Below are positions 2,693 to 63,158 of a DNA stretch of 64,000 bases, piece after piece. A model generated the notes under the pieces. It did not search any database. It was not told the origin of the DNA and saw nothing but the letters and a program-made list of their open reading frames with translations. The translations under genes were made by a program, and so were the position numbers. Location: NCBI GenBank assembly GCA_015233675.1, contig JADFXH010000009.1, positions 22,339 through 86,338 on the forward strand, given 5' to 3'. The stretch comes from Candidatus Omnitrophota bacterium (lineage in GTDB: Bacteria > Omnitrophota > Gorgyraeia > Zapsychrales > Fredricksoniimonadaceae). Position 1 is the first letter of the stretch. Each line of letters starts with the position of its first letter.

Positions 2693-4528
2693 TTATCTTC
2701 CGGATGATTTTTTAAGCTCACTGATAAATCCGGGATTAACAGCATATCCCAGTTCTTTTGCTTTATGCGCGTCACTCCACGCTTTATCATATTCTTTTAA
2801 CAAATAGTAAGTGCCAGCCCTGTTATAGTAAGCGTCTGGATAATAAGGATTTATTTCAATAGATTTTGTTAAATCAGAAACAGCTTGAGTGAAATTCTTC
2901 ATTTCACCATAAATGCAACCCCGTATGTTATAAGCGATGAAGTCATAAGGGTCTATTTCAATAGCTTTTGCGGCATCAGACAAGGCTTGAGAAAAATTGC
3001 CAAGTTTATGATATAGAATAGACCGGGTATGATACGGCAACACCCCCCTTGAGAATGATATTTTAATTGCTTTGGTATAATCAGCAATGGCCTTAATGAA
3101 TTCACCGCGGCTCTCATAAATTAATCCGCGGTTAATATAAGGCTCTATGTGGTTATCAGGATCTATGGCAATGGCTTTATTAAAATCAACCATCGCACGA
3201 TCAAAATTTCCTTGATTAAAATAGCCAGCACCTCGACTAAAATAAGGCCCTGGCTTATAAGGTGATTTTAAAACGGCATCATTCCACAAAGTAATATTGT
3301 CTTTCCAAATATTATTCCTTTGATAAGTCAGTAACGAGTTCCATCCTATTATCATCGCTAGAACCATAACCATCATTTTAATGCGATTCTTCCCCCAAAG
3401 ATAGTACGCTCCACTGACTAAAAATATGCTAAATCCCGCCAATGGTAAATATAGCCGGTGTTCAAAAATGATACCTCCCATTGCCCAAAAACTTGATTCA
3501 GGTATAGTTAGAGTCAAAAAAAACCAAAAGATGGAAAAGGAAAACAGCCTATATCTTAAGAATAGTCGTTTCGCCCAATAAAAAATAACTGTTAAAAATA
3601 AAAAACTGATCAATACAGGTAATTCCAAAATATTCTTGAAAATCGGATAATCATAATCTAAGTTCTGGTTTAACGGAATGAATAACAATCTTATATAGGT
3701 GACCATGGTCCTGAATTGAGTCAGGAAATAATGCATAGGGGTGATGACACCTCCATGCGCCCTTAAATCACCATGCATGCTTTGAAAAACTTGTGACTTG
3801 ATAAATAAGAATGTGACAGGAACAATAAATATGGTAAGCAAGAAAGGAGCAAGAATTCTCCAATTAAAACTTTTTTTAGTGTTTAAAAAACTGTACTCAT
3901 AAAACAATATCATTAAGGGCAATGTTACAGCATTCTCCTTAGTAAACATGGCTACAACTGCTGTTATCAAAGATCCTGTGTAATAAAATTTCCAATGGCC
4001 TAAACTAAGTTTTTCAACCTGCAGCAGCCTTGATTTGACATAAAGGCATAAGGACGCCAAATAAAACATGGCCGCCATTGAAGCAGCCCTCTGCCAAATA
4101 TACGTCACTGCTTCAGTTTGGACCGGATGGCTTACAAATACCAACCCTGCAAACAAAGCAATGAGACTAGCATGACGGGTAATTTTATCCTCTTTCATGG
4201 CAGGAGTAGAAAGAGTCAAAAGGGTCAGCCACCAGACTAAAATGGCCGTAATTATATGAACCGCCAAGTTAAACAGGTGGTATCCAAAAACATTAAGGCC
4301 GTTAAAGTGATAGTTAAAAGCCAGAGATAGAAAAACAAAAAAGCGGCCGTGAAAATAATGCCAGATGCTTTGCAAATTAAAAATGTTCCTTATTGGGATA
4401 TTATCGACTATGAATATCCTGTCATCGAACTGAAACGAACAGTGAAAGGAATTGGAATAAACAATAGTTCCCAGACAAGAAATGAGCAGGATTGAAAACA
4501 GATAAAACAGCCTCAAGCAAACCTCCAT
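2693..4528 (-). CDS. TMTC/PMT-like GT-C membrane protein with C-terminal TPR domain (tandem paralog 2)
   Basis: 611 aa. The N-terminal membrane domain is nearly colinear with the 924..2669 product, with long identical runs such as GRFFVFLSLAFNYHFNGLNVFGYHLFNLAVHIITAILVWWLTLLTLSTPAMKEDKI. The TPR region is divergent and one repeat longer. Confidence 0.6.
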   Translation of the reverse strand: MEVCLRLFYLFSILLISCLGTIVYSNSFHCSFQFDDRIFIVDNIPIRNIFNLQSIWHYFHGRFFVFLSLAFNYHFNGLNVFGYHLFNLAVHIITAILVWWLTLLTLSTPAMKEDKITRHASLIALFAGLVFVSHPVQTEAVTYIWQRAASMAAMFYLASLCLYVKSRLLQVEKLSLGHWKFYYTGSLITAVVAMFTKENAVTLPLMILFYEYSFLNTKKSFNWRILAPFLLTIFIVPVTFLFIKSQVFQSMHGDLRAHGGVITPMHYFLTQFRTMVTYIRLLFIPLNQNLDYDYPIFKNILELPVLISFLFLTVIFYWAKRLFLRYRLFSFSIFWFFLTLTIPESSFWAMGGIIFEHRLYLPLAGFSIFLVSGAYYLWGKNRIKMMVMVLAMIIGWNSLLTYQRNNIWKDNITLWNDAVLKSPYKPGPYFSRGAGYFNQGNFDRAMVDFNKAIAIDPDNHIEPYINRGLIYESRGEFIKAIADYTKAIKISFSRGVLPYHTRSILYHKLGNFSQALSDAAKAIEIDPYDFIAYNIRGCIYGEMKNFTQAVSDLTKSIEINPYYPDAYYNRAGTYYLLKEYDKAWSDAHKAKELGYAVNPGFISELKKSSGR

Positions 4529-5287: not shown

Positions 5288-5553
5288 GCATGCATTATAA
5301 GGACTAAATTTGTTCTTTGAAGCGACTGTAATTAAGTACATGAGTATGGATGGACAGGTATTATCAATACGGCACATTAAGGAATTTTTCGCCAAATGTC
5401 TGCGAGGATTTACGACAAAAATGTTCCAAATGAAGAGAAACTTTAGAACATTTTTGTTGTAAACCGAAGCAGACGGCGAAAATATTCCGTGCCGAATTGA
5501 TAATACCTGTCCATCCATCACGCTACAAATTGCACGAATGAAAAGAATAAATT
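5288..5553. repeat. composite: type II-like arms flanking type I copy A
   Basis: Left arm GCATGCATTATAAGGACTAAATTTGTTCTTTGAAGCGACTGT (5288-5329) is homologous to the arms of the 62701-62940 palindrome. Right arm GCACGAATGAAAAGAATAAATT (5532-5553) is partly complementary to it. Confidence 0.7.
5346..5518 (-). repeat. type I long-hairpin repeat, copy A (basal variant 1, apical variant 1)
   Basis: 173-nt imperfect palindrome ATGGATGGACAGGTATTA...TAATACCTGTCCATCCAT centred on the loop CAAATGAAGAGAAACTTTA. Lies between dapA and dapB. Confidence 0.9.
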
Positions 5554-5562
5554 GAAAGCAAG

Positions 5563-6441
5563 CTATTTGATCAATCCGTAAACCTTTAACGCCTGTTTTA
5601 ATTTAGCCAGATTAGCTTCTTCCATATCGCACATAGGAAGACGGAGTGCGCCATTGCATAATCCCATCAGCTCACATGCTTTTTTAACAGGGATAGGGTT
5701 CGTCTCAACAAATAAAGACCGGACTAACGGCAGTAATTTCAAATTGATCTCTTGGGCTTTCTTTAAATTTCCTTGATTAAAAGCATTAATGAGGGCCACC
5801 ACATCATGGGGAACAATGTTAGCCGCAACCGATATCACCCCAACCCCGCCAATGGCTAAAATAGGCAAAGTCAAGGAATCATCCCCAGATATTAAAGAAA
5901 ATCCCTTCGGACACAGCTCTTTAATGCGGAGCATTTGCTCCAAAGAACCTGACGATTCCTTGACACCGACAATATTTTTAAAATCAGAAGCCAACTTTGC
6001 CATTAAATCCGGCTCAATATTCCTGCCTGTACGCCCGATGATATTGTAAAGAATAATGGGAATATCAGCACTTTCACTGACTGCTTTATAGTGCAGGTAT
6101 ATACCCTTATTGGTAGGCTTATTATAATAAGGGGTGACCACCAGGGCCGCATCCGCGCCAGCCTTGGCCGCGTACTGGGTCATATGCACGGCTTCGCTAG
6201 TTGAGTTAGAACCGGTACCGGCAATAACAGGGATCCTTTTGGCGACAACTTGCACGCAAAGTTTAATGGTTTCTTCATGTTCCTTCTCAGAAAGCGTCGG
6301 CGTCTCACCGGTGGTCCCGCAAGGAACAATGCCGTTGGTGCCCTCTTTAATTTGCCAATCAATGAGCTTTTTGTAAGCCCCTTCGTCAACCCGCTCGCCG
6401 TCAAAAGGCGTCACTAAAGCCACCATAGAACCTTTAAACAT
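5563..6441 (-). CDS. dapA: 4-hydroxy-tetrahydrodipicolinate synthase
   Basis: 292 aa. MVALVTPF, GTTGE and the Schiff-base lysine context GVKESSG. Confidence 0.92.
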   Translation of the reverse strand: MFKGSMVALVTPFDGERVDEGAYKKLIDWQIKEGTNGIVPCGTTGETPTLSEKEHEETIKLCVQVVAKRIPVIAGTGSNSTSEAVHMTQYAAKAGADAALVVTPYYNKPTNKGIYLHYKAVSESADIPIILYNIIGRTGRNIEPDLMAKLASDFKNIVGVKESSGSLEQMLRIKELCPKGFSLISGDDSLTLPILAIGGVGVISVAANIVPHDVVALINAFNQGNLKKAQEINLKLLPLVRSLFVETNPIPVKKACELMGLCNGALRLPMCDMEEANLAKLKQALKVYGLIK

Positions 6442-9888: not shown

Positions 9889-11052
9889 TTAATACGGCAT
9901 ACCCCAAAGCCGGATAAAGCCTTCGGAAAGTTTGGGATCGAATATGTCTTTATCGCCGTAGGTCGCAAGCTCCTCTTTATAACGTGAAAACCGGGATTTG
10001 CGCCCCGCCACCTGACAGCTTCCTTTAAACAGTTTCAGCTTCACAACCCCGCTGACACGCTCCTGGGTCTTGTTAATAAACGCGTCTAATTGGATCTTGA
10101 GCGGAGTCTCCCATAATCCGTAGTACGTCAACTCGGCATAGCGGGGAGATATCAATTCCTTATAATGCAGGGTCTCACGATCAAGGACCAGGGCTTCGAG
10201 TTCTTTGTGCGCTGTCATTAAAACAGTTCCTGCAGGATTTTCATAAATCTCGCGGGATTTAATGCCTACCAAACGGTTTTCCACCATATCCACACGCCCC
10301 ACCCCATTGCGCCCCCCAATCTCATTGAGCTTAATGATCAACTCAACGGGGCCGTACGCTTTGCCATTCACTTTAAGGGGATTCCCTTTGACAAATTCCA
10401 CCTCGACATATTCCGGACGATCAGGGCATTTAAGCGGATTTTTGGTCATCGCATAGATTTCTTCCGGCGGCTCAACCCAGGGATCTTCCAAAACACCGCA
10501 CTCAATGGAACGGCCGTAAAGATTAATGTCCGTTGAGTACGGACTCTTTTTGGTGACATCAATAGGTATCTTATATTTATGCGCGTATTCAATTTCCTGT
10601 TCGCGGGTTTTAAATTCCCATGTGCGCAAAGGTGCCAATAACTCCAGATGAGGCGCCAATATTTTAGCGGTCACTTCAAAACGCACCTGGTCATTGCCCT
10701 TGCCCGTACAGCCGTGGGCAACAGCCGTTGCTTTTTCTTTTTTTGCCACCGCCACCTGATGCTTGGCAATCAAAGGCCGCGACAAAGCAGTCGCTAAAAA
10801 ATATTTACCTTCATAAACCGCATTAGCCTTGATCGCAGGAAAGACATAATCCTTAACAAATTCCTGCTTTAAATCAAGGATGTAAACCTTGGAAGCGCCT
10901 GTTGCCAGGGCACGCTTTTCGATTGCCTTAAAATCGCTCCCCTGCCCCACATCAGCCATAAAAGCAATGACCTCATAGTCCTTGTCTTTCAACCAACGGA
11001 TCAGGCAGCTGGTGTCTAAACCGCCAGAATAAGCTAAAATAACTTTCTTCAT
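9889..11052 (-). CDS. argG: argininosuccinate synthase
   Basis: 387 aa. AYSGGLDTS ATP-binding motif and GCTGKGNDQVRFE. Confidence 0.93.
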   Translation of the reverse strand: MKKVILAYSGGLDTSCLIRWLKDKDYEVIAFMADVGQGSDFKAIEKRALATGASKVYILDLKQEFVKDYVFPAIKANAVYEGKYFLATALSRPLIAKHQVAVAKKEKATAVAHGCTGKGNDQVRFEVTAKILAPHLELLAPLRTWEFKTREQEIEYAHKYKIPIDVTKKSPYSTDINLYGRSIECGVLEDPWVEPPEEIYAMTKNPLKCPDRPEYVEVEFVKGNPLKVNGKAYGPVELIIKLNEIGGRNGVGRVDMVENRLVGIKSREIYENPAGTVLMTAHKELEALVLDRETLHYKELISPRYAELTYYGLWETPLKIQLDAFINKTQERVSGVVKLKLFKGSCQVAGRKSRFSRYKEELATYGDKDIFDPKLSEGFIRLWGMPY

Positions 11053-11057
11053 AATAT

Positions 11058-11112
11058 CCCCTTCCTTAAAATTCCATTACCTTTCCATTGATTAGGTCGG
11101 GCCAACGCCCTT
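11058..11112 (-). repeat. ~56-nt repeat forming the argG 5' leader and Shine-Dalgarno region
   Basis: Minus-strand AAGGGCGTTGGCCCGACCTAATCAATGGAAAGGTAATGGAATTTTAAGGAAGGG, followed by GATATT and the ATG. A second copy lies at 12328-12383. Confidence 0.85.
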
Positions 11113-11128: not shown

Positions 11129-11377
11129 TGTCAAAATTCTTGCAGATTATGCATGAGAAGAGATATTATTTGCTCAACGGGATATTTTCGCCGTTGGCGT
11201 CGGTTTACAGCAAAAATGTTCTAAAGTCTCTCTTCATTTGGAACATTTTTCCTGTAAATCCTAGCCAACTTTTGGCGAAAAATCCCTGAATGTTTCGCAA
11301 ACAATATCCCTTCTCATGCATAACATACAATCCTTGCCCAGGCTGATACTGATATTCAGTGTCAGCCGTCCATGTAT
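11129..11377. repeat. TGTCAAAA-ended composite element carrying type I copy B (right end truncated or diverged)
   Basis: The left end TGTCAAAATTCTTGCAG and the internal sequence are colinear with 53304-53691, apart from the 112-nt insert. Homology ends near 11377 and there is no right TTTTGACA. Confidence 0.65.
11147..11323 (+). repeat. type I long-hairpin repeat, copy B (basal variant 3, apical variant 1)
   Basis: 177-nt palindrome TTATGCATGAGAAG...CTTCTCATGCATAA, sharing the middle stem and apical loop with the other copies. Confidence 0.9.
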
Positions 11378-11407: not shown

Positions 11408-12322
11408 CTACGCTAACAACTTTAAAAGAACTGCCTTTTGCGCGTGCAAACGGTTTTCAGCCTGATCAAAAACTACCGAGTGTTCTCCGTCAATGATATC
11501 CGCTGTCACTTCCAGACCGCGATGTGCGGGCAGGCAATGCATGAAAATATAATCCTTATGGGCCGCTTTCACCAGATCCTTATTGACCTGATAACCCTTA
11601 AATTCTTTGATGCGTTTGGCTTTTTCTTTTTCCTGCCCCATACTGACCCATACGTCAGAATATATAATATCTGCTCCCTTAACGGCTTGCTGGGGATTTC
11701 GCCCTAATTCAATAGTACACCTATTTTTTTTGGCGCTATCTTTTGCATCTTGCACAATTTCATAGTTAGGATCATACCCTTTTGGGCCGGCAAAACGCAC
11801 ATTAATCCCCACTTTAGCACAAGCAATCATCAACGAATGAAAAACATTATTCCCATCACCAACATAAGCCAAGGTCAAGCCCTTGAATGAACCCATCTTC
11901 TCACGGATAGTCTGAATATCTGCCAGAGCTTGGCAGGGATGATACAGGTCGCACAAGGCATTAATGACCGGCACATCTGCGTGCTGGGCCAGTTCAAAAA
12001 TATCTTTACTGTCAAAAACCCTCGCAACAATACAATGCACATAACGCGACAAGGTCTTGGCCACATCATAAGTAGACTCACGCTTGCCCAGATTGATCTC
12101 TTCAGGCCCCAGATAAAGGCAATGCCCGCCTAATTCATAAACGCCCACTTCAAAAGAAACACGTGTGCGGTTAGATGGTTTTTGGAACACCAACGCGACT
12201 GTTTTGCCTTTCAAATCAGCACGCAATTTTCCTTTTTGTTTCTTTAACAAGCCTGCCGAATCAATCAAAGACACTATTTCGGCGCCGGAATAATCAGACA
12301 ATTTTATCAAATCACGTTTCAT
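11408..12322 (-). CDS. argF: ornithine carbamoyltransferase
   Basis: 304 aa. SNRTRVSFE carbamoyl-phosphate motif and HCLPAHRG. Confidence 0.92.
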   Translation of the reverse strand: MKRDLIKLSDYSGAEIVSLIDSAGLLKKQKGKLRADLKGKTVALVFQKPSNRTRVSFEVGVYELGGHCLYLGPEEINLGKRESTYDVAKTLSRYVHCIVARVFDSKDIFELAQHADVPVINALCDLYHPCQALADIQTIREKMGSFKGLTLAYVGDGNNVFHSLMIACAKVGINVRFAGPKGYDPNYEIVQDAKDSAKKNRCTIELGRNPQQAVKGADIIYSDVWVSMGQEKEKAKRIKEFKGYQVNKDLVKAAHKDYIFMHCLPAHRGLEVTADIIDGEHSVVFDQAENRLHAQKAVLLKLLA

Positions 12323-13580
12323 ACTTTCCCTTCCTTAAAATTCCACAAGCCTTGCCATTGATTAGGTCGGGCCAACGCCCTTTCGTCACAGCTCCCTTTT
12401 TCAAAACCGCCTCAATTGCCCCATCCAAAATATGAATAGCTTTATTAATTTGACGCCGGGTCACATTAAGTGCCGGCATAATACGTAATACATTGTCCTG
12501 CGTACAATTGATAATTAATCCCCTGCTAAAACATTCCTTAAAAATTGCGGCACCTTCAATTGTCAACTCCACTCCGATCATAAGCCCCAAGCCGCGCACT
12601 TCTTTAATAACGTCATATTTAGACTTCAATTCGTTTAACTTCATGACCAAATAGGGGCCCTGAACTTTAACCTTTTTCATTATTTTTTCAGCATAAATAG
12701 CTTTAATTACTCCCAAAGCTGCCTTACATACCAAGGGACTGCCGGCAAAGGTCGATCCGTGCATGCCCGGCTTAAAGATGTCAGCCAGCTCTTTTTTTAC
12801 AATCATAGCCCCTATGGGCAAGCCGCCGCCTAAGGCCTTGGCCAGGCACATCACATCCGGTGTTATGCCGTAATGCTTAAAGGCGAAGATCTCACCAGTG
12901 CGGGCCATGCCCGACTGAACTTCATCAATGATCAGCAGAATTTTTTGCTCATCGCAGATTTGGCGCAGAGCCTTCACATATTCCTTAGTAGCAACATTAA
13001 TCCCGCCTTCACCCTGAATAAGCTCAATCATAATGGCCGCTGTTTGATCATTGACCGCTGCTTTTAAAGCGCCGATGTCATTAAAAGGCACATGTTTGAA
13101 TCCGGGCACAAGAGGAGAAAACCCTTTTTGGTGCTTCTCCTGCCCTGTTGCCGTCAAGGCGCCCATGGTTCGGCCATGAAAAGCATTAATGGTCGTGATG
13201 ATCTCAAATTTCTTGCCCTCGCCGTACTTCCTGGCAAATTTAATGGCCGCCTCCACAGATTCCGTGCCGCTGTTACAGAAAAAAATCTTGCCCTCAAAAG
13301 AAATACGGATCAATTCTTTAGCTAATTTGGCCTGGTGAGGATTATAAAAATTATTCGGAATATGGATTAATTTCCCGATCTGTTCACGCACCGCACCCAT
13401 GACCTTAGGATGGCAATGCCCTAAGTTGCTTACACCCCAGCCAGGAAAAAAATCTAAATATTTCTTACCTTGAAAATCCGTCAGCTGTGACCCTTTGCCT
13501 TTAACAAAGATCGCAGGCATGCGGGTATACGTCAGAAGGATATGGTCGTTATATTCTTTAAAAATTTCGTCAGCTTTCAT
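12312..13580 (-). CDS. argD: acetylornithine aminotransferase (class III); the last ~23 codons are repeat-derived
   Basis: 422 aa. NSGTESVE, DEVQSGMARTG and the PLP lysine region. The C-terminal KGRWPDLINGKACGILRKGKYET is encoded by the 56-nt repeat also found upstream of argG. Confidence 0.88.
   Translation of the reverse strand: MKADEIFKEYNDHILLTYTRMPAIFVKGKGSQLTDFQGKKYLDFFPGWGVSNLGHCHPKVMGAVREQIGKLIHIPNNFYNPHQAKLAKELIRISFEGKIFFCNSGTESVEAAIKFARKYGEGKKFEIITTINAFHGRTMGALTATGQEKHQKGFSPLVPGFKHVPFNDIGALKAAVNDQTAAIMIELIQGEGGINVATKEYVKALRQICDEQKILLIIDEVQSGMARTGEIFAFKHYGITPDVMCLAKALGGGLPIGAMIVKKELADIFKPGMHGSTFAGSPLVCKAALGVIKAIYAEKIMKKVKVQGPYLVMKLNELKSKYDVIKEVRGLGLMIGVELTIEGAAIFKECFSRGLIINCTQDNVLRIMPALNVTRRQINKAIHILDGAIEAVLKKGAVTKGRWPDLINGKACGILRKGKYET
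12328..12383 (-). repeat. ~56-nt repeat forming the argF leader/SD and the argD C-terminal codons
   Basis: Minus-strand AAAGGGCGTTGGCCCGACCTAATCAATGGCAAGGCTTGTGGAATTTTAAGGAAGGG, followed by AAAGT and the ATG. Colinear with 11058-11112. Confidence 0.85.
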
Positions 13581-19983: not shown

Positions 19984-20643
19984 TCAATTTACCCGGTTTG
20001 ACTGCCAAAACTCTTTTGTATCCACATCCATGATCGTAAGCCGCGCACCCCATCCTGCCCCGGTATCTAACCCCCAGACATTACAGAATTTCTGGGGTCC
20101 TTCTTTCCCAAAATTCAGCGTCGGAGTATGGCCGACAAAAATCTCATCGTAATTCCCGAATTTATAATCCGCTGAAGCCATCTGAAACTGTTGTGCTTTT
20201 TTTAACAAACTTCTATCCCAAAGAAAGATTTCCTTGGGAGTTTCTTCAACAGTACGTTGGGGGTCAAAACCCCCGTGAACAAACAGCCTGTTTTGATCAA
20301 CAAAATAAAAATGAGCTTCAGCCAAAAAACGGATATGCTCGCCGGGCATTCCGGTTTCCTTATAAGACATCATCGTCTGTGCTCCTCCCTGATCCAGCCA
20401 TTCTTGAGGCATTTTCCCATTAATCGCCCACTCTAAGCTCCAAGCGTCATGGTTCCCCAAAATATAAATACACCCGGGAAGAGTCAAAAGCTCATCAATA
20501 CACTCTCTGACCTGTTTACCCCTGTCGCAGACATCGCCCAAACAGATAAGCCGGTCTTTGTCCCTGTCAAATCGGGACAGCTCTAAACATTGAAGCAGGG
20601 CCTTATAAGTCCCATGAATATCACCTATAACAAATGTCTTCAT
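19984..20643 (-). CDS. calcineurin-like metallophosphoesterase (PrpA/ApaH-type Ser/Thr phosphatase family)
   Basis: 219 aa. GDIHG, GDVCDRG and GNHD metallophosphatase motifs. Confidence 0.85.
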   Translation of the reverse strand: MKTFVIGDIHGTYKALLQCLELSRFDRDKDRLICLGDVCDRGKQVRECIDELLTLPGCIYILGNHDAWSLEWAINGKMPQEWLDQGGAQTMMSYKETGMPGEHIRFLAEAHFYFVDQNRLFVHGGFDPQRTVEETPKEIFLWDRSLLKKAQQFQMASADYKFGNYDEIFVGHTPTLNFGKEGPQKFCNVWGLDTGAGWGARLTIMDVDTKEFWQSNRVN

Positions 20644-20683
20644 AAATTTTATAAAGAATAAATTTATTCTTTTCGTTCGCGCA

Positions 20684-20855
20684 TTGAGATGAACAGCTAT
20701 TATATATTCGGCACGGGAATTTTTCGCCGTCTGCTACGGTTTACAGCTTGGCTGCTATCGCGATAAGGCATTCGCGGCAGCCAAGCTGTAAATCCTTGCA
20801 GACTTTTGGCAAAAAATTCCTATCGTGCCTCACACATAATAGCTGTTCATCTCAA
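20684..20855 (+). repeat. type I long-hairpin repeat, copy C (basal variant 2, apical variant 2)
   Basis: TTGAGATGAACAGCTATTA...TAATAGCTGTTCATCTCAA. The apex is CTTGGCTGCTATCGCGATAAGGCATTCGCGGCAGCCAAG. Confidence 0.9.
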
Positions 20856-20916
20856 GCGCATGCGTCATTATAAGAGATAAATTCTTTAAAACGAAACTAT
20901 GATTTAGTACATTAGT

Positions 20917-21089
20917 ATGGATGGACAGGTATTATTAATTCGGCACATTCAGGAATTTTTTCCCAAAAGTCTGCGAGGAGTTACAACAAAAATGTTCCAA
21001 ATGAAGAGAATCTTTAGAACATTTTTGTTGTAAACCGAAGCAGACGGAAAAAATATTCCGTGCCGAATTAATAATACCTGTCCATCCAT
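20917..21089 (-). repeat. type I long-hairpin repeat, copy A' (basal variant 1, apical variant 1)
   Basis: Near-identical to copy A over 173 nt. Sits 61 nt from copy C in the asd / phosphatase intergenic gap. Confidence 0.9.
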
Positions 21090-21139
21090 CACGCTACAAA
21101 TTGCGCTAAGAATAAATTGTTTTGAAATGCCCTTAGACT

Positions 21140-22117
21140 TTATTTATTCTTGATCAAAAATTCCGCAATTTGGACGGCATTTAGGGCGGCGCCCTTGCGT
21201 AGATTATCCGAAACCACCCACAGATTCAAACCATTGGGAATGGAAATGTCCTCGCGGATGCGGCCGACAAAGGTCTCATCACGGCCGTCAGACATAATAG
21301 GCAGCGGATACAGGGATGAGGAAACATCATCAACAACCTTGACCCCCGGCGCCTTGCTTAAAATTCTAATCGCTTGGGCACGGGTGATCTTTTTCTTGGT
21401 CTCAATATTTATTGATTCAGAGTGGCTGTTTTTGACCGGTACCCGCACACAAGTGGGGCACACCTGAATCTTTTGGTCATGAAACATCTTGCGGGTTTCA
21501 TTGACCATTTTCATCTCTTCTTTAGTATAAAAATTATCCGTAAACACATCAATGTGCGGAATCAAATTATGCGCTATTTGATGAGGAAATTTCTTAACGG
21601 TCTTTTGACCGGCCAACTGATCTTCTAATTCCGCCACAGCCTCAGCGCCGGCGCCAGAAACCGCCTGATACGTTGAAACAACGATACGTTTGATCTTGGC
21701 AAAATCATGCAGGGGCTTTAAAGCCACCAGCATTTGTATGGTCGAACAATTTGGATTAGCAATGATCCCTTTATGTTTTTTGATATCTTCAGGATTAACT
21801 TCAGGCACCACCAAAGGGACTTTCGGATCCATACGAAATTGTGACGTATTGTCAATCACAACTGCCCCTGCCTTGACCGCAATAGGCGCCCATATCTTGG
21901 AAATCTCAGCGCCGGGTGACGCCAAAACAATGTCTACCCCGTTAAATACATCATGGGTCAATGGCACGTACTTATGCCCCTCCAGTTGGCCGCCTGCGCC
22001 GCTGGGTGAAATTAATATCAATTTATTAACAGGAAATTTACGCTCTTTGACAATGCGGTACATGCATTGGCCTACTGCTCCCCGAATACCTAAAATAGCA
22101 ACATTATATTTTTTCAT
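21140..22117 (-). CDS. asd: aspartate-semialdehyde dehydrogenase
   Basis: 325 aa. GIRGAVG Rossmann motif and active-site NPNCSTIQ. Confidence 0.92.
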   Translation of the reverse strand: MKKYNVAILGIRGAVGQCMYRIVKERKFPVNKLILISPSGAGGQLEGHKYVPLTHDVFNGVDIVLASPGAEISKIWAPIAVKAGAVVIDNTSQFRMDPKVPLVVPEVNPEDIKKHKGIIANPNCSTIQMLVALKPLHDFAKIKRIVVSTYQAVSGAGAEAVAELEDQLAGQKTVKKFPHQIAHNLIPHIDVFTDNFYTKEEMKMVNETRKMFHDQKIQVCPTCVRVPVKNSHSESINIETKKKITRAQAIRILSKAPGVKVVDDVSSSLYPLPIMSDGRDETFVGRIREDISIPNGLNLWVVSDNLRKGAALNAVQIAEFLIKNK

Positions 22118-23184: not shown

Positions 23185-23200
23185 AAATAACCCTTGGGAA

Positions 23201-23236
23201 TTCCCTCCCCCTTGTAATGAGGATTAGGGAGGGGAA
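23201..23236. repeat. pyrimidine/purine-tract hairpin TTCCCTCCCCC...GGGAGGGGAA upstream of leuB
   Basis: Lies between the fabF stop and the leuB start. Related to 38325-38345. Confidence 0.55.
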
Positions 23237-27540: not shown

Positions 27541-28344
27541 ATGATTCTTTACGGTGACTACCACATTCATACTCCTCTTTGCGGTCATGCCATCGGTGAG
27601 CCCGAAGAGTACATTAAACAAGCCATTAAAGTTGGTCTTAAAGAAATCGGATTCTCTGATCATGCGCCCATGGTGCACAAACCCATGCCCGGAATAACAA
27701 TGTCTTTTGACCAACTGCCTGGGTATAACGCCATGATCGAAGACATCCGTAAACGCTTTGCTTCTCAAATCAGCATTAAAATCGCCATAGAATTAGATTT
27801 TCTGCCTGGATATGAAAATAAAACTAAAGCTATTGCTGATAGCTATCCTTATGATTATATCATCGGTTCGGTCCATTTTATCGATGGCTGGGCTTTTGAT
27901 GACCCTGCTACCCGTGAATACTGGAAAAAATACGATGTCAATGAAGTCTACCGCAAATACTACGCCCTTTTAAGGCAGTCTGCCCAAACCGGATTTTATC
28001 AAATTATAGGCCATTGCGACTTGCCTAAAAAATTCGGCGCCAGGCCTGGCGTTGATCTAACCGATGAGATCAAAGCAACGGCTAAAATTTTTAAGGACAC
28101 AGGCATAGCTGTTGAAATCAACACCTCGGGTTTACGCAAACCCATCGGCGAAATGTTCCCGGATCTTAATTGCCTAAAAATATATCGTGAAGCTAAGGTG
28201 CCTTTGGTATTCGGCTCTGACGCGCATGACCCTCTTGACGTTGGCAAAGATTTTGACAAAGCCGTTGACTTGGCCAAAGCTGCCGGATACAACGAATATC
28301 TAATATTCAAAAACAAAAGAATAGAAAGACTAATTAAAATCTAG
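27541..28344 (+). CDS. PHP-family histidinol-phosphatase (HisJ type)
   Basis: 267 aa. YGDYHIHTPLCGHA N-terminal PHP metal motif, plus later SDHAP, GSVHF and GSDAH motifs. Confidence 0.8.
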   Translation: MILYGDYHIHTPLCGHAIGEPEEYIKQAIKVGLKEIGFSDHAPMVHKPMPGITMSFDQLPGYNAMIEDIRKRFASQISIKIAIELDFLPGYENKTKAIADSYPYDYIIGSVHFIDGWAFDDPATREYWKKYDVNEVYRKYYALLRQSAQTGFYQIIGHCDLPKKFGARPGVDLTDEIKATAKIFKDTGIAVEINTSGLRKPIGEMFPDLNCLKIYREAKVPLVFGSDAHDPLDVGKDFDKAVDLAKAAGYNEYLIFKNKRIERLIKI

Positions 28345-30812: not shown

Positions 30813-31739
30813 ATGGAAATATTTTTAGCTAAAACTCAAGGGTTTTGCGCCGGAGTTGCGAGTGCTATTGACATTGTCGAGTTGGCCCTCAAAACTTACG
30901 GCACTCCTTTATACGTCTATCATGACATCGTGCACAACACTCCCGTCGTTGAAAACATGAAAGCCCGGGGAGTTGTCTTCGTCGAAAACTTAAGCGATAT
31001 CCCTACCGGTTCACGAATTATCTTCAGCGCACATGGTGTTGGGCCTGATCTCATCAATGAAGCCCGTAAACGCCGTTTAAAATACGTCGATGCCACCTGC
31101 CCTCTGGTGACAAAGGTCCACAAGGAAGCCGTCAAATTTTCCAGCCAAAAAGTAGATACTGTGCTTATCGGCCATGTGGGGCATCAAGAATTGATCGGCA
31201 CCTCTGGATATGTGCATCCGGACTTACTCCACATCATTGAAAACGAAAAAGATGTCGACACTTTGAACATCGATCCCCAAAAAAACATTGCCTACATAAC
31301 ACAGACAACACTTTCCACCGATGAAACTAAGGGCATCATTGAGAAATTAAAATCAAAATTCCCTAAACTGGCAGGCCCCACTCGATCGGACATTTGTTAC
31401 GCAACCCAAAACCGCCAAGATGCCGTCAAAGAACTGGCGGGCTTCTGTGATATCATTATCATTTGCGGTTCTCCTCACTCTTCCAACAGCAATCGCCTGC
31501 GGGAAACAGGCGCACATATGGGCGTGGCCAGCTATATCGTCGACACAGCCGCAGATTTGGACTGCTCTATTTTTAAAGGAAAACAAAAAACAGGTTTGAG
31601 TTCTGGGGCTTCTGTGCCCCGTTATCTGGTGGATGAAATCATTGATAAGGTCAAAATCTTTGTCCCCCAAACCATTGTTCATGAATTCAGCAATCCTGAA
31701 AAAAACATTATGTTTCCGGTATTACAATTTAAGGAATAA
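30813..31739 (+). CDS. ispH: 4-hydroxy-3-methylbut-2-enyl diphosphate reductase
   Basis: 308 aa LytB. Three conserved Cys contexts: GFCAGV, ATCPLV and ICYATQNRQ. Confidence 0.92.
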   Translation: MEIFLAKTQGFCAGVASAIDIVELALKTYGTPLYVYHDIVHNTPVVENMKARGVVFVENLSDIPTGSRIIFSAHGVGPDLINEARKRRLKYVDATCPLVTKVHKEAVKFSSQKVDTVLIGHVGHQELIGTSGYVHPDLLHIIENEKDVDTLNIDPQKNIAYITQTTLSTDETKGIIEKLKSKFPKLAGPTRSDICYATQNRQDAVKELAGFCDIIIICGSPHSSNSNRLRETGAHMGVASYIVDTAADLDCSIFKGKQKTGLSSGASVPRYLVDEIIDKVKIFVPQTIVHEFSNPEKNIMFPVLQFKE

Positions 31740-31744
31740 AATAA

Positions 31745-31772
31745 ATTCCCGATTAAAGCATTTGGGAATGAC
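31745..31772. repeat. degenerate member of the GGGAATGAC hairpin family
   Basis: ATTCCCGATTAAAGCATTTGGGAATGAC, between ispH and the ferredoxin gene. Confidence 0.5.
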
Positions 31773-31781
31773 ATATCATTT

Positions 31782-32036
31782 ATGGCAAAATTAATTATTG
31801 ATAATATCACTTACGAAGTTGCCGATGGCGAACAAATGGCCCAGGCCTGCGCCAATGCCGGCATCCCCTTTAACTGCAATTCCGGCGTATGCGGCAGCTG
31901 TCAAATTAAAATCCTGGAAGGTGAGAAAAACATCAATGAGTTAAACAAAGAAGAAATGGACTTGGGACTAGACCGCACTCACCGTTTAGGATGCCAGTGC
32001 AAAATCTTAACCGGAACAGTAAAAGCAACCTATTAA
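31782..32036 (+). CDS. small plant-type [2Fe-2S] ferredoxin
   Basis: 84 aa. C-x4-C-x2-C (CNSGVCGSC) plus a distal Cys in GCQC. Abuts moaE with no gap. Confidence 0.8.
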   Translation: MAKLIIDNITYEVADGEQMAQACANAGIPFNCNSGVCGSCQIKILEGEKNINELNKEEMDLGLDRTHRLGCQCKILTGTVKATY

Positions 32037-32468
32037 ATGTTTATATTACAAGAAAACCCCATTGATGTACTCCACGCCAGAAACATGTGCCGTAACCCTG
32101 CCAATGGCGCATTGGTCAGTTTTGAAGGCATGGTCAGGGCTGATGAACCGCAAGGCCATGTGGTCAGCGGACTTTTGTATATCGCGGATAGTGTATCTGT
32201 AGTCGAGGAAGGTGAAAAAATAATCAAAGAGGCCCTTACCTTGTATTCCATCACCGAAGCAGTGTGCATTCAAAGGACCGGCCAATTAAAGACATCAGAA
32301 GTCCCCGTATGGATCGGCGTGTGGGCGCCCCACCGGGACGAAGCTTTTAAAGGCTGCCGCTACATCATCGAGGAAATCAAAAAAAGACTTCTCATCTGGA
32401 AGAAAGAATTTTATACCGATGGCAACAGCGCATGGATCCGCGGCCCCCAAACACCTGTTATCTTTTAA
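32037..32468 (+). CDS. moaE: molybdopterin synthase catalytic subunit
   Basis: 143 aa. HRDEAFKGCRYIIEEIKKRLLIWKKE matches the MoaE C-terminal signature. Confidence 0.85.
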   Translation: MFILQENPIDVLHARNMCRNPANGALVSFEGMVRADEPQGHVVSGLLYIADSVSVVEEGEKIIKEALTLYSITEAVCIQRTGQLKTSEVPVWIGVWAPHRDEAFKGCRYIIEEIKKRLLIWKKEFYTDGNSAWIRGPQTPVIF

Positions 32469-32469
32469 T

Positions 32470-33399
32470 ATGAATATAAAACCCCATGCCATACTGTCAG
32501 ACTACACCACTTTTCAATTAGGCGGAGCTTGCCTTTGTCTGGTCGAGTGTACAACACCGGATGAACTGATACAAACAGTTAAAAAATTCAAGGAAGAAAA
32601 TACGCATTTTTTATTGATCGGTGGCGGATCCAACTTAGTGGTCTCTGACCGTGGCCTGAACACTCACCTCATCCGCTACGTGTCCCCTGCCCCCCTGATT
32701 AAGCGCAAAGGCCTTGATGTCACGGTAACGGCCAGCTCCCTGTTGGATGATTTAGCCCTTTACTGCGTTGATGAAGGTCTGGAAGGCCTAAATTTCACGA
32801 CGGGCATACCGGGGACTGTCGGGGGCGCCGTCGTCGGAAATGCCGGAGCCTGGGGCAAACAAGCCGGCGATGTATTAAAATCCGCCGTTATCCTTGATCA
32901 CCAAGGCCAGCCCAAAACCGTAGGGCCTGAATACTTTGCTTTTTCTTATCGTCACTCGCGTCTCAAGGAGACGAATGAAATTATTGTTTCCGTTGCCTTT
33001 GCCTTAACTCCGGGTGATCCCGCGGTATTGGCCCGTGAGCGCGCCGAAATACTCAAAAAACGCTCCCAGAAACATCCCTGCTTATCTACCCACCCATGCG
33101 CAGGCTCTTTTTTTCGTAATATTGAACCAACATCGAAAGCAGAGCGCCGTCAGGCGGCAGGATGGTTCCTTGAACAAGCCGGAGGCAAGGATCTAAAAGC
33201 TGGCGGAGCTTATATTTTCGAAAGACATGCAAATATCATCATCAAAGGCCCGAATGCCACCGCCCAGGATGTGCATGACCTGCATTTAAAAATGATAGAT
33301 TTGGTCAAATCAAAATTTAATTTACTTTTGACCCGTGAAGTGCGTTTTATGGGGAAATTCAACAATATTTTGCAGGCTGACCAGGAGGGATTTTGGTAA
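32470..33399 (+). CDS. murB: UDP-N-acetylenolpyruvoylglucosamine reductase
   Basis: TTFQLGG, GGGSNL and AGSFFRN motifs. The likely start is MNIKPHA (ATG at 32470, directly after the moaE stop); the track start at 32419 overlaps moaE. Confidence 0.9.
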   Translation: MNIKPHAILSDYTTFQLGGACLCLVECTTPDELIQTVKKFKEENTHFLLIGGGSNLVVSDRGLNTHLIRYVSPAPLIKRKGLDVTVTASSLLDDLALYCVDEGLEGLNFTTGIPGTVGGAVVGNAGAWGKQAGDVLKSAVILDHQGQPKTVGPEYFAFSYRHSRLKETNEIIVSVAFALTPGDPAVLARERAEILKKRSQKHPCLSTHPCAGSFFRNIEPTSKAERRQAAGWFLEQAGGKDLKAGGAYIFERHANIIIKGPNATAQDVHDLHLKMIDLVKSKFNLLLTREVRFMGKFNNILQADQEGFW

Positions 33400-33428
33400 T
33401 ACCGCTTTATGGCCCCCCAGTGCGTATA

Positions 33429-33818
33429 TCAATGGATCCATTCAAAATTCTTATTCTCTTTTAATCCCTTATCAAACGTATATGTCTTAAGATTTCTTGA
33501 AGCGCCAATTTCTCCGAACAAAGCATCATTAAAGCTGAAGCCTCTCGCACATTTAGAAATGGCCAATCGTACGGACGTTTCATACTCAAAACAAAACTGC
33601 GGCACCTTTAAAAGCTCTTCAAACGAATTTAAGACACTTTCTTTGGATAAACCATACTTTTTGGTAAGGACAAAGTGCGTTTCAATTAAAACACCATGGC
33701 AAACGAATATTTCTCTTGGGCCATAGCTTTCAATCAAGGCAATGGCCTTCTTAACCCTGGGTTCATCATCAAGGGCAATAATCCTTATCAAAATATTGGT
33801 ATCTAGGGCGATTTTCAT
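33429..33818 (-). CDS. vapC: PIN-domain toxin (VapC family)
   Basis: 129 aa. N-terminal LDTNILI acidic motif and further conserved acidic residues. Overlaps the upstream antitoxin gene by 4 nt. Confidence 0.85.
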   Translation of the reverse strand: MKIALDTNILIRIIALDDEPRVKKAIALIESYGPREIFVCHGVLIETHFVLTKKYGLSKESVLNSFEELLKVPQFCFEYETSVRLAISKCARGFSFNDALFGEIGASRNLKTYTFDKGLKENKNFEWIH

Positions 33819-34072
33819 TTATTTTCGCTTTCTTCCCATGTTTCTTGACGCGCTTTGCGGATTTCTTCATCGGTTAATTTCTTTGTCCCCTGTCCACGAT
33901 GATTATTAACAAAATCTCTGATAGTGAATCTTTCCATCCGCGGTTTCACTTCGACATGCCCGTTCTTTTCTTCAAAAACAAGATTGTCGCCCGGGTTTAA
34001 CTTTAAACGGACCATTAGCTTTAAAGGAACAGTGATTTGTCTTTTGGATGAGATTTTAGCGGCGATAACCAT
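33815..34072 (-). CDS. vapB: AbrB/SpoVT-fold antitoxin (VapB/MazE-like)
   Basis: 85 aa. SKRQITVPLKLMVRLKLNPGD is a swapped-hairpin AbrB motif. AAGGAGG lies upstream. Confidence 0.8.
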   Translation of the reverse strand: MVIAAKISSKRQITVPLKLMVRLKLNPGDNLVFEEKNGHVEVKPRMERFTIRDFVNNHRGQGTKKLTDEEIRKARQETWEESENK

Positions 34073-34087
34073 TGCGCAAGACCTCCT

Positions 34088-34124
34088 TTGTTACGATAAC
34101 AATCTTACATTGTTCACATAACAA
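34088..34124. promoter_or_regulatory. two tandem palindromic candidate VapB operators
   Basis: TTGTTACGATAACAA (34088-34102) and TTGTTCACATAACAA (34110-34124). Centres are 22 bp apart, between the candidate -10 and the vapB SD. Confidence 0.5.
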
Positions 34125-34151
34125 ATATATCATATTTAAAATGAATAGCAA
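34124..34151 (-). promoter_or_regulatory. candidate vapBC promoter
   Basis: Minus-strand TTGCTA (34151-34146), a 16-nt spacer, then TGATATATT extended -10 ending at 34124. Confidence 0.4.
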
Positions 34152-34166
34152 GAATATTGTTCGTAT

Positions 34167-35427
34167 CACACCTGTCCGGTAAAAAATAAGGAAACCACGT
34201 CCATCGTGTTAGAATAAGGTTACGCGAATAACCAAACCACGAGGAGGGTTCCCAATGGCTCATTCTAACACGCTTTTCCACGAACTGCTAAAACTTATCC
34301 CGAGACATCAATTTGATACAATCGTCAAAAATCATGGCGGTAACCGTTACGTTAAGCATTTTAATTGCTGGCAACAGTTCGCCACACTGCTTTATGCCTA
34401 AGCCGCAGACAAAGATTCTTTACGCGAAATTGAGCAAGGCATGCAAATCAATGATCCCCGGCTGTATCACTTGGGCCTGACACGCATTAAACGCTCAACT
34501 TTATCAGATGCTAATCGCAATCGCCCCAGCGAAATTTTCCAAGCATTGTTTTATAAATTAGTTGAACGCTGTCAGACATTGACACCCAAGCACAAATTTA
34601 AATTTAAGAATCCTCTTTATACTTGGGACGCCACGCTCATCAGCCTATGCCTGTCTTTGTTCCCCTGGTCCAAGTTTGGTCAGACCAAGGGAGCTCTTAA
34701 ACTTCACGTTCAGATTAACCATAGCGGGCATATTCCTGACTTTATAGTTGCAACGCCAGCATTCAATCATGAAAGCATGGTTGTTAAAAGGTCGTTTCAA
34801 ATTAAACCGGACAGCATTTATTGCTTTGACCGCGGCTATTGGGACTATTCGTTGTTCCGTCGGATACATAACGCCAAGGCCTTCTTCGTGACACGCACCA
34901 AGGAAACCATGAAATACACGGTTACCGGACAGCATAGCGAAACATCAAAAAAAGGCATACTCTCTGATGAGATTATTCAACTGGTTAACGATCCATATCA
35001 AAAAGAATTACGGCTAGTGCGGTACTATGATGAGGAGTCCGGAGAAATATTTGAATTCTTGACCAATAATCTTCATTTGGCGGCTACAACCATTGGGAAA
35101 ATTTATCAGGCAAGGTGGCAAATCGAAGCTTTTTTCAAGTGGGTTAAACAAAACTTGAAGATCAAAACATTCTTGGGGACGAATCAAAATGCGGTTTTAT
35201 CCCAAATCTGGGTGGCGATGTGCTACTTCTTGCTTTTGGCCTATATAAAAAATTCCAGACCAAGTTCCAAAAATCACTCTTTTATCTGCATAAACTGGTC
35301 CAGGATGCACTGTTTTCACCTTTAACCATCGTTGACTTGCTTACAGCCTCGCAAAGAAAGCTTGAGCGATTTAAGACCAACGAATTCCAGTTTGCATTCC
35401 TCTAGAAAGTTTTACCGGACAGCTGTG
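34167..35427 (+). mobile_element. IS4-family insertion sequence, decayed
   Basis: 18-19 bp terminal inverted repeats: CACACCTGTCCGGTAAAA (34167-34184) and its near-complement GTTTTACCGGACAGCTGTG (35409-35427). They bracket a DDE transposase reading frame. No clear target-site duplication seen. Confidence 0.8.
34255..35405 (+). pseudogene. IS4-family (DUF4372 + DDE) transposase, inactivated
   Basis: Starts at the ATG at 34255 (GAGGAGGG upstream) with MAHSNTLFHELLKLIPRHQFD. There is an in-frame TAA at 34399-34401, and the frame resumes as the 34441..35325 ORF. A frameshift near the A-run around 35250 moves the conserved C-terminus into the 35220..35405 frame. Confidence 0.8.
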
Positions 35428-37033: not shown

Positions 37034-37055
37034 ATAAATTAAAATTCTTGTTTTG

Positions 37056-37079
37056 GATTCCCGCTTTCGCGGGAATGAC
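37056..37079. repeat. short hairpin repeat, same family (GATTCCCGC-TTTC-GCGGGAATGAC)
   Basis: Perfect 9-bp stem with tetraloop between sufS and sufU. Reverse complement of the 923-946 unit. Confidence 0.8.
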
Positions 37080-38308: not shown

Positions 38309-38324
38309 TTGCCCTCCTCCCTAA

Positions 38325-53322: not shown

Positions 53323-53499
53323 TTATGCATAAAAAGAGATATTATTTGCTCAACGGGACATTTTCGCCGTTGGCGTCGGTTTACAGCAAAAATGTTCTAA
53401 AGTTTCTCTTCATTTGGAACATTTTTGCTGTAAATCCTAGCCAACTTTTGACGAAAAATCCCTGAATGTTTCGCAAACAATATCTCTTTTCATGCATAA
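53323..53499 (+). repeat. type I long-hairpin repeat, copy B'
   Basis: Near-identical to copy B (TTATGCATAAAAAG...CTTTTCATGCATAA). Confidence 0.9.
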
Positions 53500-53531
53500 C
53501 ACCCAATCCTTGCTCAGGCTGATACTGATAT

Positions 53532-53643
53532 GTTGTTCTGACGTATAAAAATCTGAAACCTTGCATTCGGCTGGTCTTGACGCGTGACCCCGAATGTGGG
53601 AAACCACCCTACCAGCATGAACAAAGATTTTAGCCAGAACAAC
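53532..53643. repeat. 112-nt nested hairpin insert with 9-nt terminal inverted repeats
   Basis: GTTGTTCTG...CAGAACAAC, flanked by ATAT on both sides. The paralogous site at 11351-11359 (GATATTCAG) is uninterrupted. Confidence 0.8.
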
Positions 53644-53704
53644 ATATCAGTGTCAGCCGTCCATGTATCACGCGCTCATAAACTTTTGACACTGCCGGGC
53701 GCAC

Positions 53705-62660: not shown

Positions 62661-62700
62661 TCCTCATGAGCACACGGACATAGAAGCATGCAACTCTAGT

Positions 62701-62940
62701 GCATGCATTATAAGGAATGATTTTGTTCTTTTCGCTCCTGAAAGTCATTTTCTTAACGCCAAAAATTCTTATGACGACTCGGTGGTCAAACAACTCGCTC
62801 TTTCTTTCTCTGGAAATAAAGAGCTCAAACATGTTTGACCATTTAAGCCTGAGGGCTTAAATGCCCTCGTCATCATAAGTTTTTTGGCTAAAAATGACAC
62901 AGTCGCTTCAAAGAACAAATTCATTCCTTATAATGCACGC
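62701..62940. repeat. type II ~240-nt Y-shaped palindrome
   Basis: The basal stem GCATGCATTATAAGGAATGA (62701-62720) pairs with TCATTCCTTATAATGCACGC (62921-62940). Two apical hairpins are present: TGGTCAAACA...TGTTTGACCA (62783-62841) and TTTAAGCC-TGAG-GGCTTAAA (62842-62861). Confidence 0.85.
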
Positions 62941-62982
62941 ATCATTAGATGAATTGTCTTTTTAGAAACACATTTAGGATGG

Positions 62983-63158
62983 CTGAACAGCTATTCTTAT
63001 TATGTATTCGGCACATTCTGGAATTTTTTCCCAAATGTCTGCAAGGCTTTACAGCTTGGGTGCCGCATATGCCTTATCGCGATAGCATCCAAGCTGTAAA
63101 CCGTAGCAGACGGGAAAAATATTCCCGTGCCGAATACATAATAAGAATAGCTGTTCAG
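62983..63158 (-). repeat. type I long-hairpin repeat, copy D (basal variant 2, apical variant 2, inverted relative to C)
   Basis: CTGAACAGCTATTCTTATTATGTATTCGGCAC...GTGCCGAATACATAATAAGAATAGCTGTTCAG. The apex is the reverse complement of copy C's apex. Confidence 0.9.

Follow-up and report, generated by a model that had tools for sequence, protein, structure and literature searches.

ERIC/IRU sequences of enterobacteria such as Yersinia are imperfect palindromes longer than 100 nt, which lie in transcribed intergenic regions and operons in both orientations and are said to duplicate TA. To our knowledge, their presence at a given site varies between related species, and they have no known transposase. 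Correia elements carry 26-bp terminal inverted repeats around a non-palindromic interior and duplicate TA. In the attC sites of integrons, one-sided extrahelical bases define which strand of the folded single-stranded DNA is recognised. REPINs consist of two short inverted REP palindromes, each with an unpaired GTAG (or CGTC) end tag (PMC3116915, PMC3733652). Here a family of hairpins is described from a 64,000-nt stretch of a Candidatus Omnitrophota genome (assembly GCA_015233675.1, contig JADFXH010000009.1, positions 22,339 to 86,338), referred to below as the window. The window has six copies of one long imperfect palindrome. They probably belong to a family of ~175-bp non-coding, non-autonomous DNA elements that spread in Omnitrophota genomes and settle between genes.

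The six palindromes, each 172-177 nt long, were confirmed by reading positions 20500-21300 and by a repeat search of the whole window (Table 1). They had been noticed in an earlier note on this DNA; its six copies are borne out within a few bases, and its consensus arms are essentially right. Their shared 19-nt degenerate core pattern, CCGTYKGCNNCGGTTTACA, has six matches in the window, far beyond the 0.07 expected from shuffled sequences. The covariance model R1 (see below) finds exactly these six copies and no other, with 153-188 bits on the forward strand and 64-78 bits on the opposite strand. The copy A' is predicted to fold with -62.7 kcal/mol as DNA (z = -17.7 against shuffles) and with -98.8 kcal/mol as RNA (z = -17.4). 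Copies A and A' (93% identity) are each other's closest relatives, as are B and B' (95%). Three copies are forward on the plus strand (those starting at 11147, 20684, and 53323) and three on the minus strand (5346, 20917, and 62983). C and A' are neighbours. The earlier note regarded them as a tandem pair; they are adjacent, but the pair is inverted, with the bulged arms facing each other.

Table 1. Hairpin copies and neighbouring repeat elements in the window
Feature	Basal type	Apical type	Position	Strand	Score or basis
Hairpin copy A	1	i	5346..5518	-	R1 187.6 bits
Hairpin copy B	3	i	11147..11323	+	R1 177.6 bits
Hairpin copy C	1	ii	20684..20855	+	R1 156 bits
Hairpin copy A'			20917..21089	-	R1 182 bits
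Hairpin copy B'			53323..53499	+	R1 173.8 bits
Hairpin copy C'		ii	62983..63158	-	R1 153.3 bits
Promoter-like module AAAGAACAAATT..TCCTTATAATGCATGC, contains TTCAAA-16-TATAAT			5288..5318	-	Next to hairpin A
Promoter-like module			62701-62731	-	Pattern search
Promoter-like module			62910-62940	+	Pattern search
Promoter-like module, diverged			~20866-20900	-	Next to hairpins
Imperfect palindrome of ~245 nt, ends are inverted copies of the promoter-like module			62697..62941	.	Inverted repeats
Third palindromic element, 24-nt terminal inverted repeats GGCTGATACTGATATGTTGTTCTG			53517..53658	.	Directly 3' of hairpin B'

The forward strand is defined as the one whose 5' arm reads GGCAC-GGAATATTTTCGCC-GTCTGC-TT-CGGTTTACA. 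On this strand the 3' arm reads TGTAAA(N)CC-TC-GCAGAC-ATTT-GGCGAAAAATTCC-TGAAT-GTGCC. Three stretches of the 3' arm, namely one base, ATTT, and TGAAT, are bulged out, always on this same arm, and the 5' arm has one or two extra bases. The conserved core consists of GGCAC, GGRATATTTTNGCC, GTCTGC, and CGGTTTACA with their partners. The basal stem is variable, with the usual ending ...AAGGATG / CATCCTT.... As the earlier note had seen, the differences between the copies lie in discrete modules, basal and apical. At least three basal types (GGATGRAYAG..., ATATGGTTAAAC..., and TTATGCATGAG...) combine freely with two exchangeable apical types (TTCTAAAG... with a TTTGGAA loop, and the hairpin GCTGCTATCGCGATAAGGCATTCGCGGCAGC). 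One copy (L119, 1456-1633) is a chimera with arms from two different basal types, which is evidence that copies have recombined. A short variant of 116 nt, which lacks P4 and the apical part, is found at two loci (L114, 20280-20395; L116, 14197-14312). The left end often reads TAG-YRTG-AAGGATGA, with stop codons in several frames, and a few copies (A, A', L163, L119, and L059) have GTAG there. Insertion next to TAG, in the style of IS200/IS605, was considered; TAG is enriched at the left end, yet it is found within 4 nt of it in only 19 of 94 copies. The TATTAT of the basal stem is variable across the family and gives no promoter-scan call as a -10 box. A small peptide encoded in the apical module was rejected on inspection of the sequences, where its ATG is not conserved.

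Two relatives (L108 and L111) share the arg-lysA-dapF-dapA-dapB gene order with the window, and their dapA is 86% and 83% identical, respectively. The argF-argG gap, which holds hairpin B, is 355 nt in the window versus 15 and 1 nt in these relatives. Similarly, the dapA-dapB gap with hairpin A is 308 nt versus 46 and 7 nt. R1 finds no copy in 57 kb of the two relatives. In a third relative (87% identical), a copy is found directly after the argG stop codon, in the argG-argH gap, which is only 10-14 nt in the window and two other genomes; a second copy lies 12 kb from it. L089 and L023 provide a further pair of filled and empty sites: a copy stands in L089 between two genes whose L023 counterparts overlap (ATGA). 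The empty sites in relatives, together with the relatives' own copies elsewhere, show that the elements are insertions. Copy C has its closest relative in the argG-argH copy of L112 (91% identical), in another species and at a different locus, and is only 80% identical to C', implying that the subfamilies are older than the species and have members at different sites.

The earlier note had proposed a covariance-model search of related genomes. This search and two database scans give more than 100 further copies, all with the same architecture, so the family is not confined to the window. Nearly all of them come from genomes labelled Omnitrophota, or else from metagenome contigs that have no label. 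When one genome per species is scanned for the core pattern, at least 107 loci match. Among the matches listed, about 35 are true members with two arms, and the remaining loci are chance matches (e.g., those in Neisseria, which lie inside a coding region). The true members are nearly all from metagenome-assembled genomes (MAGs) labelled Candidatus Omnitrophota, from one single-cell genome (L056), and from some MAGs labelled 'uncultured Planctomycetales' (label unconfirmed). An alignment of 31 members (A1) is the basis of R1, and RNAalifold predicts for it a single long stem of 55 pairs with compensatory changes at 40. Note that this first sample was selected on the 5'-arm core. A second scan, of metagenome contigs with the 3'-arm-only pattern TTTGGNNAAAAATYCCTKAWTGT, gives at least 120 loci, and 71 of the first 100 loci searched have a full copy (R1, E <= 1e-18). 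In the alignment of copies from this independent sample (A2), the helices GTCTGC and GGTTTAC of the 5' arm again either hardly vary or covary. Therefore, the conserved core is no artefact of the search. Every copy scores far higher with R1 on one strand than on the other, indicating that the asymmetry is a constant feature. Viral contigs give one pattern match, which falls short of 1e-18 with the covariance model. Copies occur in NCBI MAGs, in the single-cell genome, and in JGI and ENA assemblies, which answers the objection that the palindromes might be assembly artefacts.

The two arms evolve together. In A2, 96.0% of the cells are Watson-Crick or wobble paired, versus 44-48% when the partners are slid by 1-3 columns. 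Both sides have changed at 36 of the 55 pairs (672 such cells versus 176 in shuffles). Basal and apical helices vary freely with compensation, while the middle helices are conserved in sequence. Between copies that are 90-95% identical, 27 compensated double differences are found versus 30 single ones, and between copies that are 85-90% identical, 204 versus 105. Under independent mutation, roughly thirty singles would be expected per double at that divergence. Since the doubles rival the singles, either multiplication is confined to lineages whose stem is intact or each arm is corrected against the other, and both imply that the hairpin actually forms. G·T wobbles occupy only 24 of ~3690 paired cells (0.65%), whereas A·C, which is G·U on the other strand, occupies 45; wobble is favoured on neither strand. 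The near-absence of G·T, which is no commoner than A·C, is taken as a sign that what is maintained would be the complementarity of DNA rather than an RNA fold.

All copies examined lie between open reading frames (ORFs). Where ORFs are called on both sides, 73 copies are between co-directional genes, four between convergent genes, and one between divergent genes. Compared with co-directional neighbours, 45 copies point the same way and 28 the other way. Same-orientation copies abut or overlap the upstream stop codon (median gap 7 nt; 31 of 45 within 20 nt), and on the other side their median gap is 91 nt. In the window, the neighbours are ordinary biosynthetic genes (dapB/dapA, argG/argF, asd, and leuC). 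Copy A has the dapA stop codon on one side and a promoter-like site upstream of dapB on the other. B is in the argF-argG gap and C just upstream of a metallophosphoesterase gene, both oriented opposite to the genes, and A' is 46 nt downstream of the asd stop codon. B' is flanked by an intrinsic-terminator-like site (53714-53732, -), which is a canonical terminator call, and by the promoter-like site of leuC (53245-53273, -), a perfect TTGACA-17-TATAAT. C' is between a promoter-like site (62907-62934, +) and a plus-strand gene start at 63193. The hairpins themselves do not look like intrinsic terminators: none is called as a whole, and no T run follows the stem. The sole terminator call overlapping a copy is a 9-pair stem at the left end of C' (62976-62997), without a real T run. 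The statement of the earlier note that the repeats and the elements they nest in fill essentially every intergenic gap above 250 bp is too strong, as 11 gaps between ORFs of 100 aa or more are 250 nt or longer, and five of these have hairpins. It is also right about the two orientations, but not about uniformly minus-strand genes: the genes are mostly minus, with plus-strand stretches at 27541-28344, 30813-35325, and 61896-64000.

No gene that could move the hairpins is found next to them. For 91 copies, the lengths of flanking direct repeats have the same distribution as in randomly re-paired flanks, and beyond the palindrome the family has no conserved sequence. For REPINs, too, we know of no target-site duplication. 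The 142 ORFs that flank 86 copies match 201 Pfam families, of which the commonest 25 are all housekeeping, and ORF clustering across the hairpin loci gives no recurrent neighbour gene. Between or next to the arms, no transposase is found in ~1.7 Mb of loci, which cover a part of each genome. As the earlier note said of the window itself, no transposase or RAYT-like gene is seen there, either by tblastn with an Omnitrophota Y1 transposase as query or among the 25 commonest of the 89 families of a Pfam scan. Searching for an autonomous parent gave only 'solo' arms that are truncations (L039, inside an ORF end; L093; the second arm of L107) or copies with a replaced interior, and no terminal inverted repeats shared with a transposase-encoding element are seen in the loci searched.

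A 219-aa gene resembling Y1 (HUH) transposases is found in L108 (13025-13684) and also in L110, L072 (1558-2214), and L056 (3555-4019). It is nearer to the NCBIfam model of RAYT than to that of IS200 TnpA, with 58-59 bits, below the RAYT cut-off of 80. It was rejected as the mobiliser, being never adjacent to a hairpin and having two matches in ~1 Mb of hairpin loci, which is not clearly above chance. The gene is missing from the same site in L111, indicating that it is itself an insertion. In L108 it has its own upstream hairpin, GGGACACC...GGTGTCC, which is reminiscent of the TIR-associated tyrosine transposases (TIR, terminal inverted repeat) described by Di Nocera et al. (PMC3733652). After this hairpin stands the motif CCCACCGTAACCT, which recurs in L039 and L228.

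How, then, might the family spread? The hairpin with its one-sided bulges could be what a protein supplied in trans recognises. It would most likely form in single-stranded DNA, and only copies with an intact stem would multiply, as is proposed for REPINs and RAYT transposases. The lack of duplication, the dependence on a stem with one-sided bulges, the DNA-like pairing, and the lack of a linked gene are as expected for single-stranded DNA moved in the REPIN manner by a trans-acting enzyme (PMC3116915). To pass from a family that works like REPINs to one moved by a Y1 enzyme would be a step by analogy only. Once inserted inside operons, copies would become part of transcripts, and mosaics that include a sigma-70-promoter-like module may re-wire the expression of downstream genes. 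A bolder version is speculative and rather improbable. It holds that the bulged hairpin is the dedicated substrate of a vertically inherited Omnitrophota protein (a new HUH-type or other single-strand-specific enzyme), the two forming a new 'genomic symbiosis' like that of REPINs and RAYTs. The modular interior, including the ~110-nt X module described below, would then represent another element, or a structured nucleic acid, for which the hairpin serves as a landing pad.

The earlier note had left two readings open, mobile DNA (MITE/REPIN-like; MITE, miniature inverted-repeat transposable element) and a structured-RNA family. The former is favoured by the empty sites, the two orientations, the lack of a linked gene, and the rarity of wobble pairs. 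A structured RNA, that is, a transcribed hairpin that an RNA-binding protein or nuclease binds or cuts and that serves as a 3'-end stabiliser or a processing mark, is unlikely, although it would explain why pairing is so strongly conserved and why the bulges and the apical loop TTCTAAAGATTCTCTTCATTTGGAA are kept across genomes. The closeness of same-orientation copies to the upstream stop codon would also fit, as would the position of C and C' between a promoter-like site and a start codon. REP-type repeats, most of which follow coding regions and which have been proposed to act as RNA, add to this side (PMC3733652). The orientation to transcription is mixed, however, and close relatives do not share the sites. 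On the transcribed strand, G·U is tolerated by real RNA families, while here it is rarer than A·C. In addition, B' is placed between terminator-like and promoter-like sites, the missing T runs leave no intrinsic terminators, and no Rfam family matches.

The conserved asymmetric core found phylum-wide, the DNA-like pairing, and the BIME-like mosaics with other repeat modules could also point to a structural site in DNA maintained by the host. Such a cruciform or hairpin for a nucleoid, topoisomerase, or replication/repair protein, as proposed for REP/BIME, would serve the chromosome and not be selfish. We regard this as distinctly unlikely. Relatives lack copies at the same sites and two have none in 57 kb, so no site is indispensable; copy density differs sharply between close relatives, and ~10% of the copies persist without the core. 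Classical MITEs, deletion derivatives of insertion sequences moved by a DDE transposase that binds their terminal inverted repeats, resemble the family in size, intergenic position, two orientations, and partly conserved terminal bases (GGATG...CATCC). This origin is nevertheless very unlikely, because target-site duplications are lacking, conservation is higher in the internal core than at the termini (in a MITE it would be the reverse), and no locus has arms around a transposase gene, the solo arms being truncations or module replacements.

Several observations weigh against spreading, hairpin-dependent DNA elements as the preferred explanation. The same-side bulges and the apical loop, conserved phylum-wide, also fit a functional RNA or a binding site for a host protein. 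About 10% of the metagenome copies are coreless yet diversifying, which blurs what spread requires. As the closest relatives are ~87% identical in protein, exact insertion junctions are not readable, and neither a transposition intermediate nor a strain-level polymorphism is seen. Pairs of window copies are 91-95% identical and hence not very recent. The similarity of A to A' and of B to B' reaches 13-32 nt past the palindrome, and part of the spread in the window may have been by duplication or recombination of larger mosaic blocks, not of the hairpin alone. Furthermore, no mobilising enzyme is found among the loci searched: the Y1 genes (L108/L110, L072, and L056) have their nearest hairpin 3-6 kb or more away, none is flanked by hairpins, and 792 kb of hairpin-bearing metagenome loci have no Y1 transposase.

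The hairpins adjoin at least four other repeat modules. The promoter-like module next to hairpin A has three matches to its pattern in the window versus none expected, and a promoter scan supports 10 of its 12 positions. It is also found beside hairpins in L078, L005, and L135. This module may supply a promoter to genes that an insertion has cut off from their operon. The ~245-nt palindrome beside C' is, by its sequence, a putative second long-hairpin family. In the third palindromic element (terminal repeats GGCTGAYACYGATATGTTGTT), the arms are 96% complementary. After hairpin B it has collapsed to two repeat tips (11341-11367). Its terminal repeat is found beside hairpins in L114, L120, L180, L155, and L215, and in the relative L114 the element is in the argG-argH gap (6230-6420). 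The fourth module, a small palindrome GTCATTCCCGCGAAAGCGGGAATCCAG, is close to many copies, only a few bases away from their left end. As (GT)CATTCCCGCGAAAGCGGGAATCC(AG) it is 5-20 nt from the left end in L120, L163, L211, L180, L142, L155, and L119. The same palindrome occurs in the window at 925-947 (+) and 37055-37077 (-), and it fills the dapA-dapB gap of L108.

In about 13 of the at least 120 metagenome loci, the conserved interior of the hairpin has given way to another module, 100-115 nt long and here called X (L128, L149, L160, L207, L167/L179, L212, L165, L124, L231, L135 at 5700-6000, L225, and L154). X starts with ATATTCCCTRTT and ends with TTGCCGAGCAAG-NAAYAGGGRATAT. The end, also written as GTACGCAT...GGTTGCCGAGCAAG-NAAYAGGGRATAT, has at the junction a repeat of the hairpin's GGRATAT. 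These variants keep the outer frame and the 3'-arm segment, which is now unpaired, and they have their own diversified basal stems. The 3' part of X is also found outside hairpins, alone (L178, L199, and L211) or inside a promoter-module element (L135 at 6096). A Rfam scan of 11 loci with such variants gives nothing relevant. X may itself be mobile, as a second element with the hairpin as its target, or it may be a structured nucleic acid.

Other repeats are found near the hairpins and elsewhere in the window. The motif AAGAATAAATT is beside A, A', and C (20653-20672, 5542-5554, and 21107-21119), once as the perfect palindrome AAAGAATAAATTTATTCTTT, and it flanks the hairpin of L013 as an inverted pair. 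Short G/C-rich palindromes, CCCTCCC...GGGAGGG or CCCCTCTTTTGAGGGGTTAGGGGAG, are in intergenic gaps (23200-23232 and 38316-38348 in the window) and directly after the hairpin in L112 (2295-2330) and L130. A palindrome of another family (42552-42680), with 26-nt arms that are 88% complementary and 77 nt apart, is in the gap upstream of a gene for an Rrf2-family regulator. Spanning the start codons of argG and argF and the sequence upstream of each, a 65-nt stretch (...AAGGGCGTTGGCCCGACCTAATCAATGG...) is repeated with 78% identity (11048-11112 and 12318-12382), and it may be a shared regulatory leader or operator of the arginine genes.

The remaining genes of the window are housekeeping genes, e.g., for SUF, TPR proteins, and folate and molybdopterin, with one ORF for a PIN domain; no tRNA is detected in the window. 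Two adjacent TPR-repeat genes (924-2669 and 2693-4528) are paralogous, with 76% protein identity, and a third (46249-47292) is more distant. These three genes account for the 102-nt periodic repeats D1-D3. The PIN-domain (VapC-like) ORF (33429-33818, -) overlaps a 105-aa ORF on the opposite strand that has no Pfam match, in a stretch of ~700 nt without other calls. The two may be a toxin-antitoxin pair.

Almost all that is known of Omnitrophota comes from metagenomes. Phylum-specific, abundant, and mobile repeats offer a marker for binning and strain typing, and such palindromes are likely to break short-read assemblies of this phylum. The copies may re-wire operons, since they come between translationally coupled biosynthetic genes and are accompanied by promoter-like modules. 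They also make a natural data set on how long DNA hairpins evolve, in which the arms change together with almost no wobble intermediates. Knowing which protein recognises the asymmetric hairpin would reveal whether there are REPIN-like systems beyond the RAYT paradigm. The family is distinctive in its phylum-wide conservation, fixed asymmetry, modular interior, and clean concerted evolution of the arms; it overturns nothing.

The family is apparently undescribed so far. The whole window has no Rfam match at gathering thresholds, and a permissive scan gives only generic miRNA-precursor hairpins with 15-33 bits, versus thresholds of 50-140. No match is obtained by blastn against 5,426 complete E. 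coli genomes (E <= 0.01), where similarity to ERIC would be seen, nor against plasmids and phages. The literature search returned nothing on repeats in Omnitrophota and no paper with the core sequences. Within this range, the novelty suggested by the earlier note stands. It had also proposed that they could be MITE/REPIN-like, which fits their behaviour; strict membership is contradicted by the absence of target-site duplication and of an adjoining RAYT gene, and by arms that are not REP units.

Among the known systems, BIMEs of E. coli are likewise intergenic mosaics of several short repeat modules in variable combinations, but their modules are unrelated in sequence, and the main unit in Omnitrophota is five times the length of a REP. 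Correia/NEMIS elements of Neisseria and other MITEs are small, non-autonomous, and intergenic like the present family, with promoter-like sequences, possible co-transcription, and repeat mosaics. In contrast to Correia elements, the Omnitrophota element is entirely hairpin, and no duplication is seen. The integron attC site is also an imperfect palindrome with one-sided extrahelical bases. The Omnitrophota copies differ from it in having no cassette array, with no integrase seen, in their mixed orientation, and in lying inside housekeeping operons beside housekeeping genes; the conserved R'/R'' motifs (GTTRRRY) are absent from them.

Closer likenesses are found in ERIC/IRU and REPINs. With ERIC/IRU the family shares its size, its position between genes and in operons, both orientations, presence or absence in relatives, and the lack of a known transposase. 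It differs in having no duplication, no sequence similarity, another host phylum, and swappable modules. Like REPINs (Bertels & Rainey 2011, PMC3116915), it is non-coding, intergenic or extragenic, and multi-copy in both orientations, it is predicted to form a hairpin in single-stranded DNA or mRNA, its stem is conserved and apparently needed for spread, and it persists long in a lineage. Unlike REP units, which fold by themselves, the arms are ~65-nt halves of one continuous stem of ~175 nt, which has a modular interior and three conserved bulges, all of them on one arm. TAG stands near the left end in only ~20% of the copies, as against the GTAG/CGTC tag of REPs, and no RAYT gene adjoins any copy in the loci searched. 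While the family departs from the defining traits of MITEs, REPINs, ERIC, attC sites, intrinsic terminators, and Rfam families, it acts like REPINs and ERIC.

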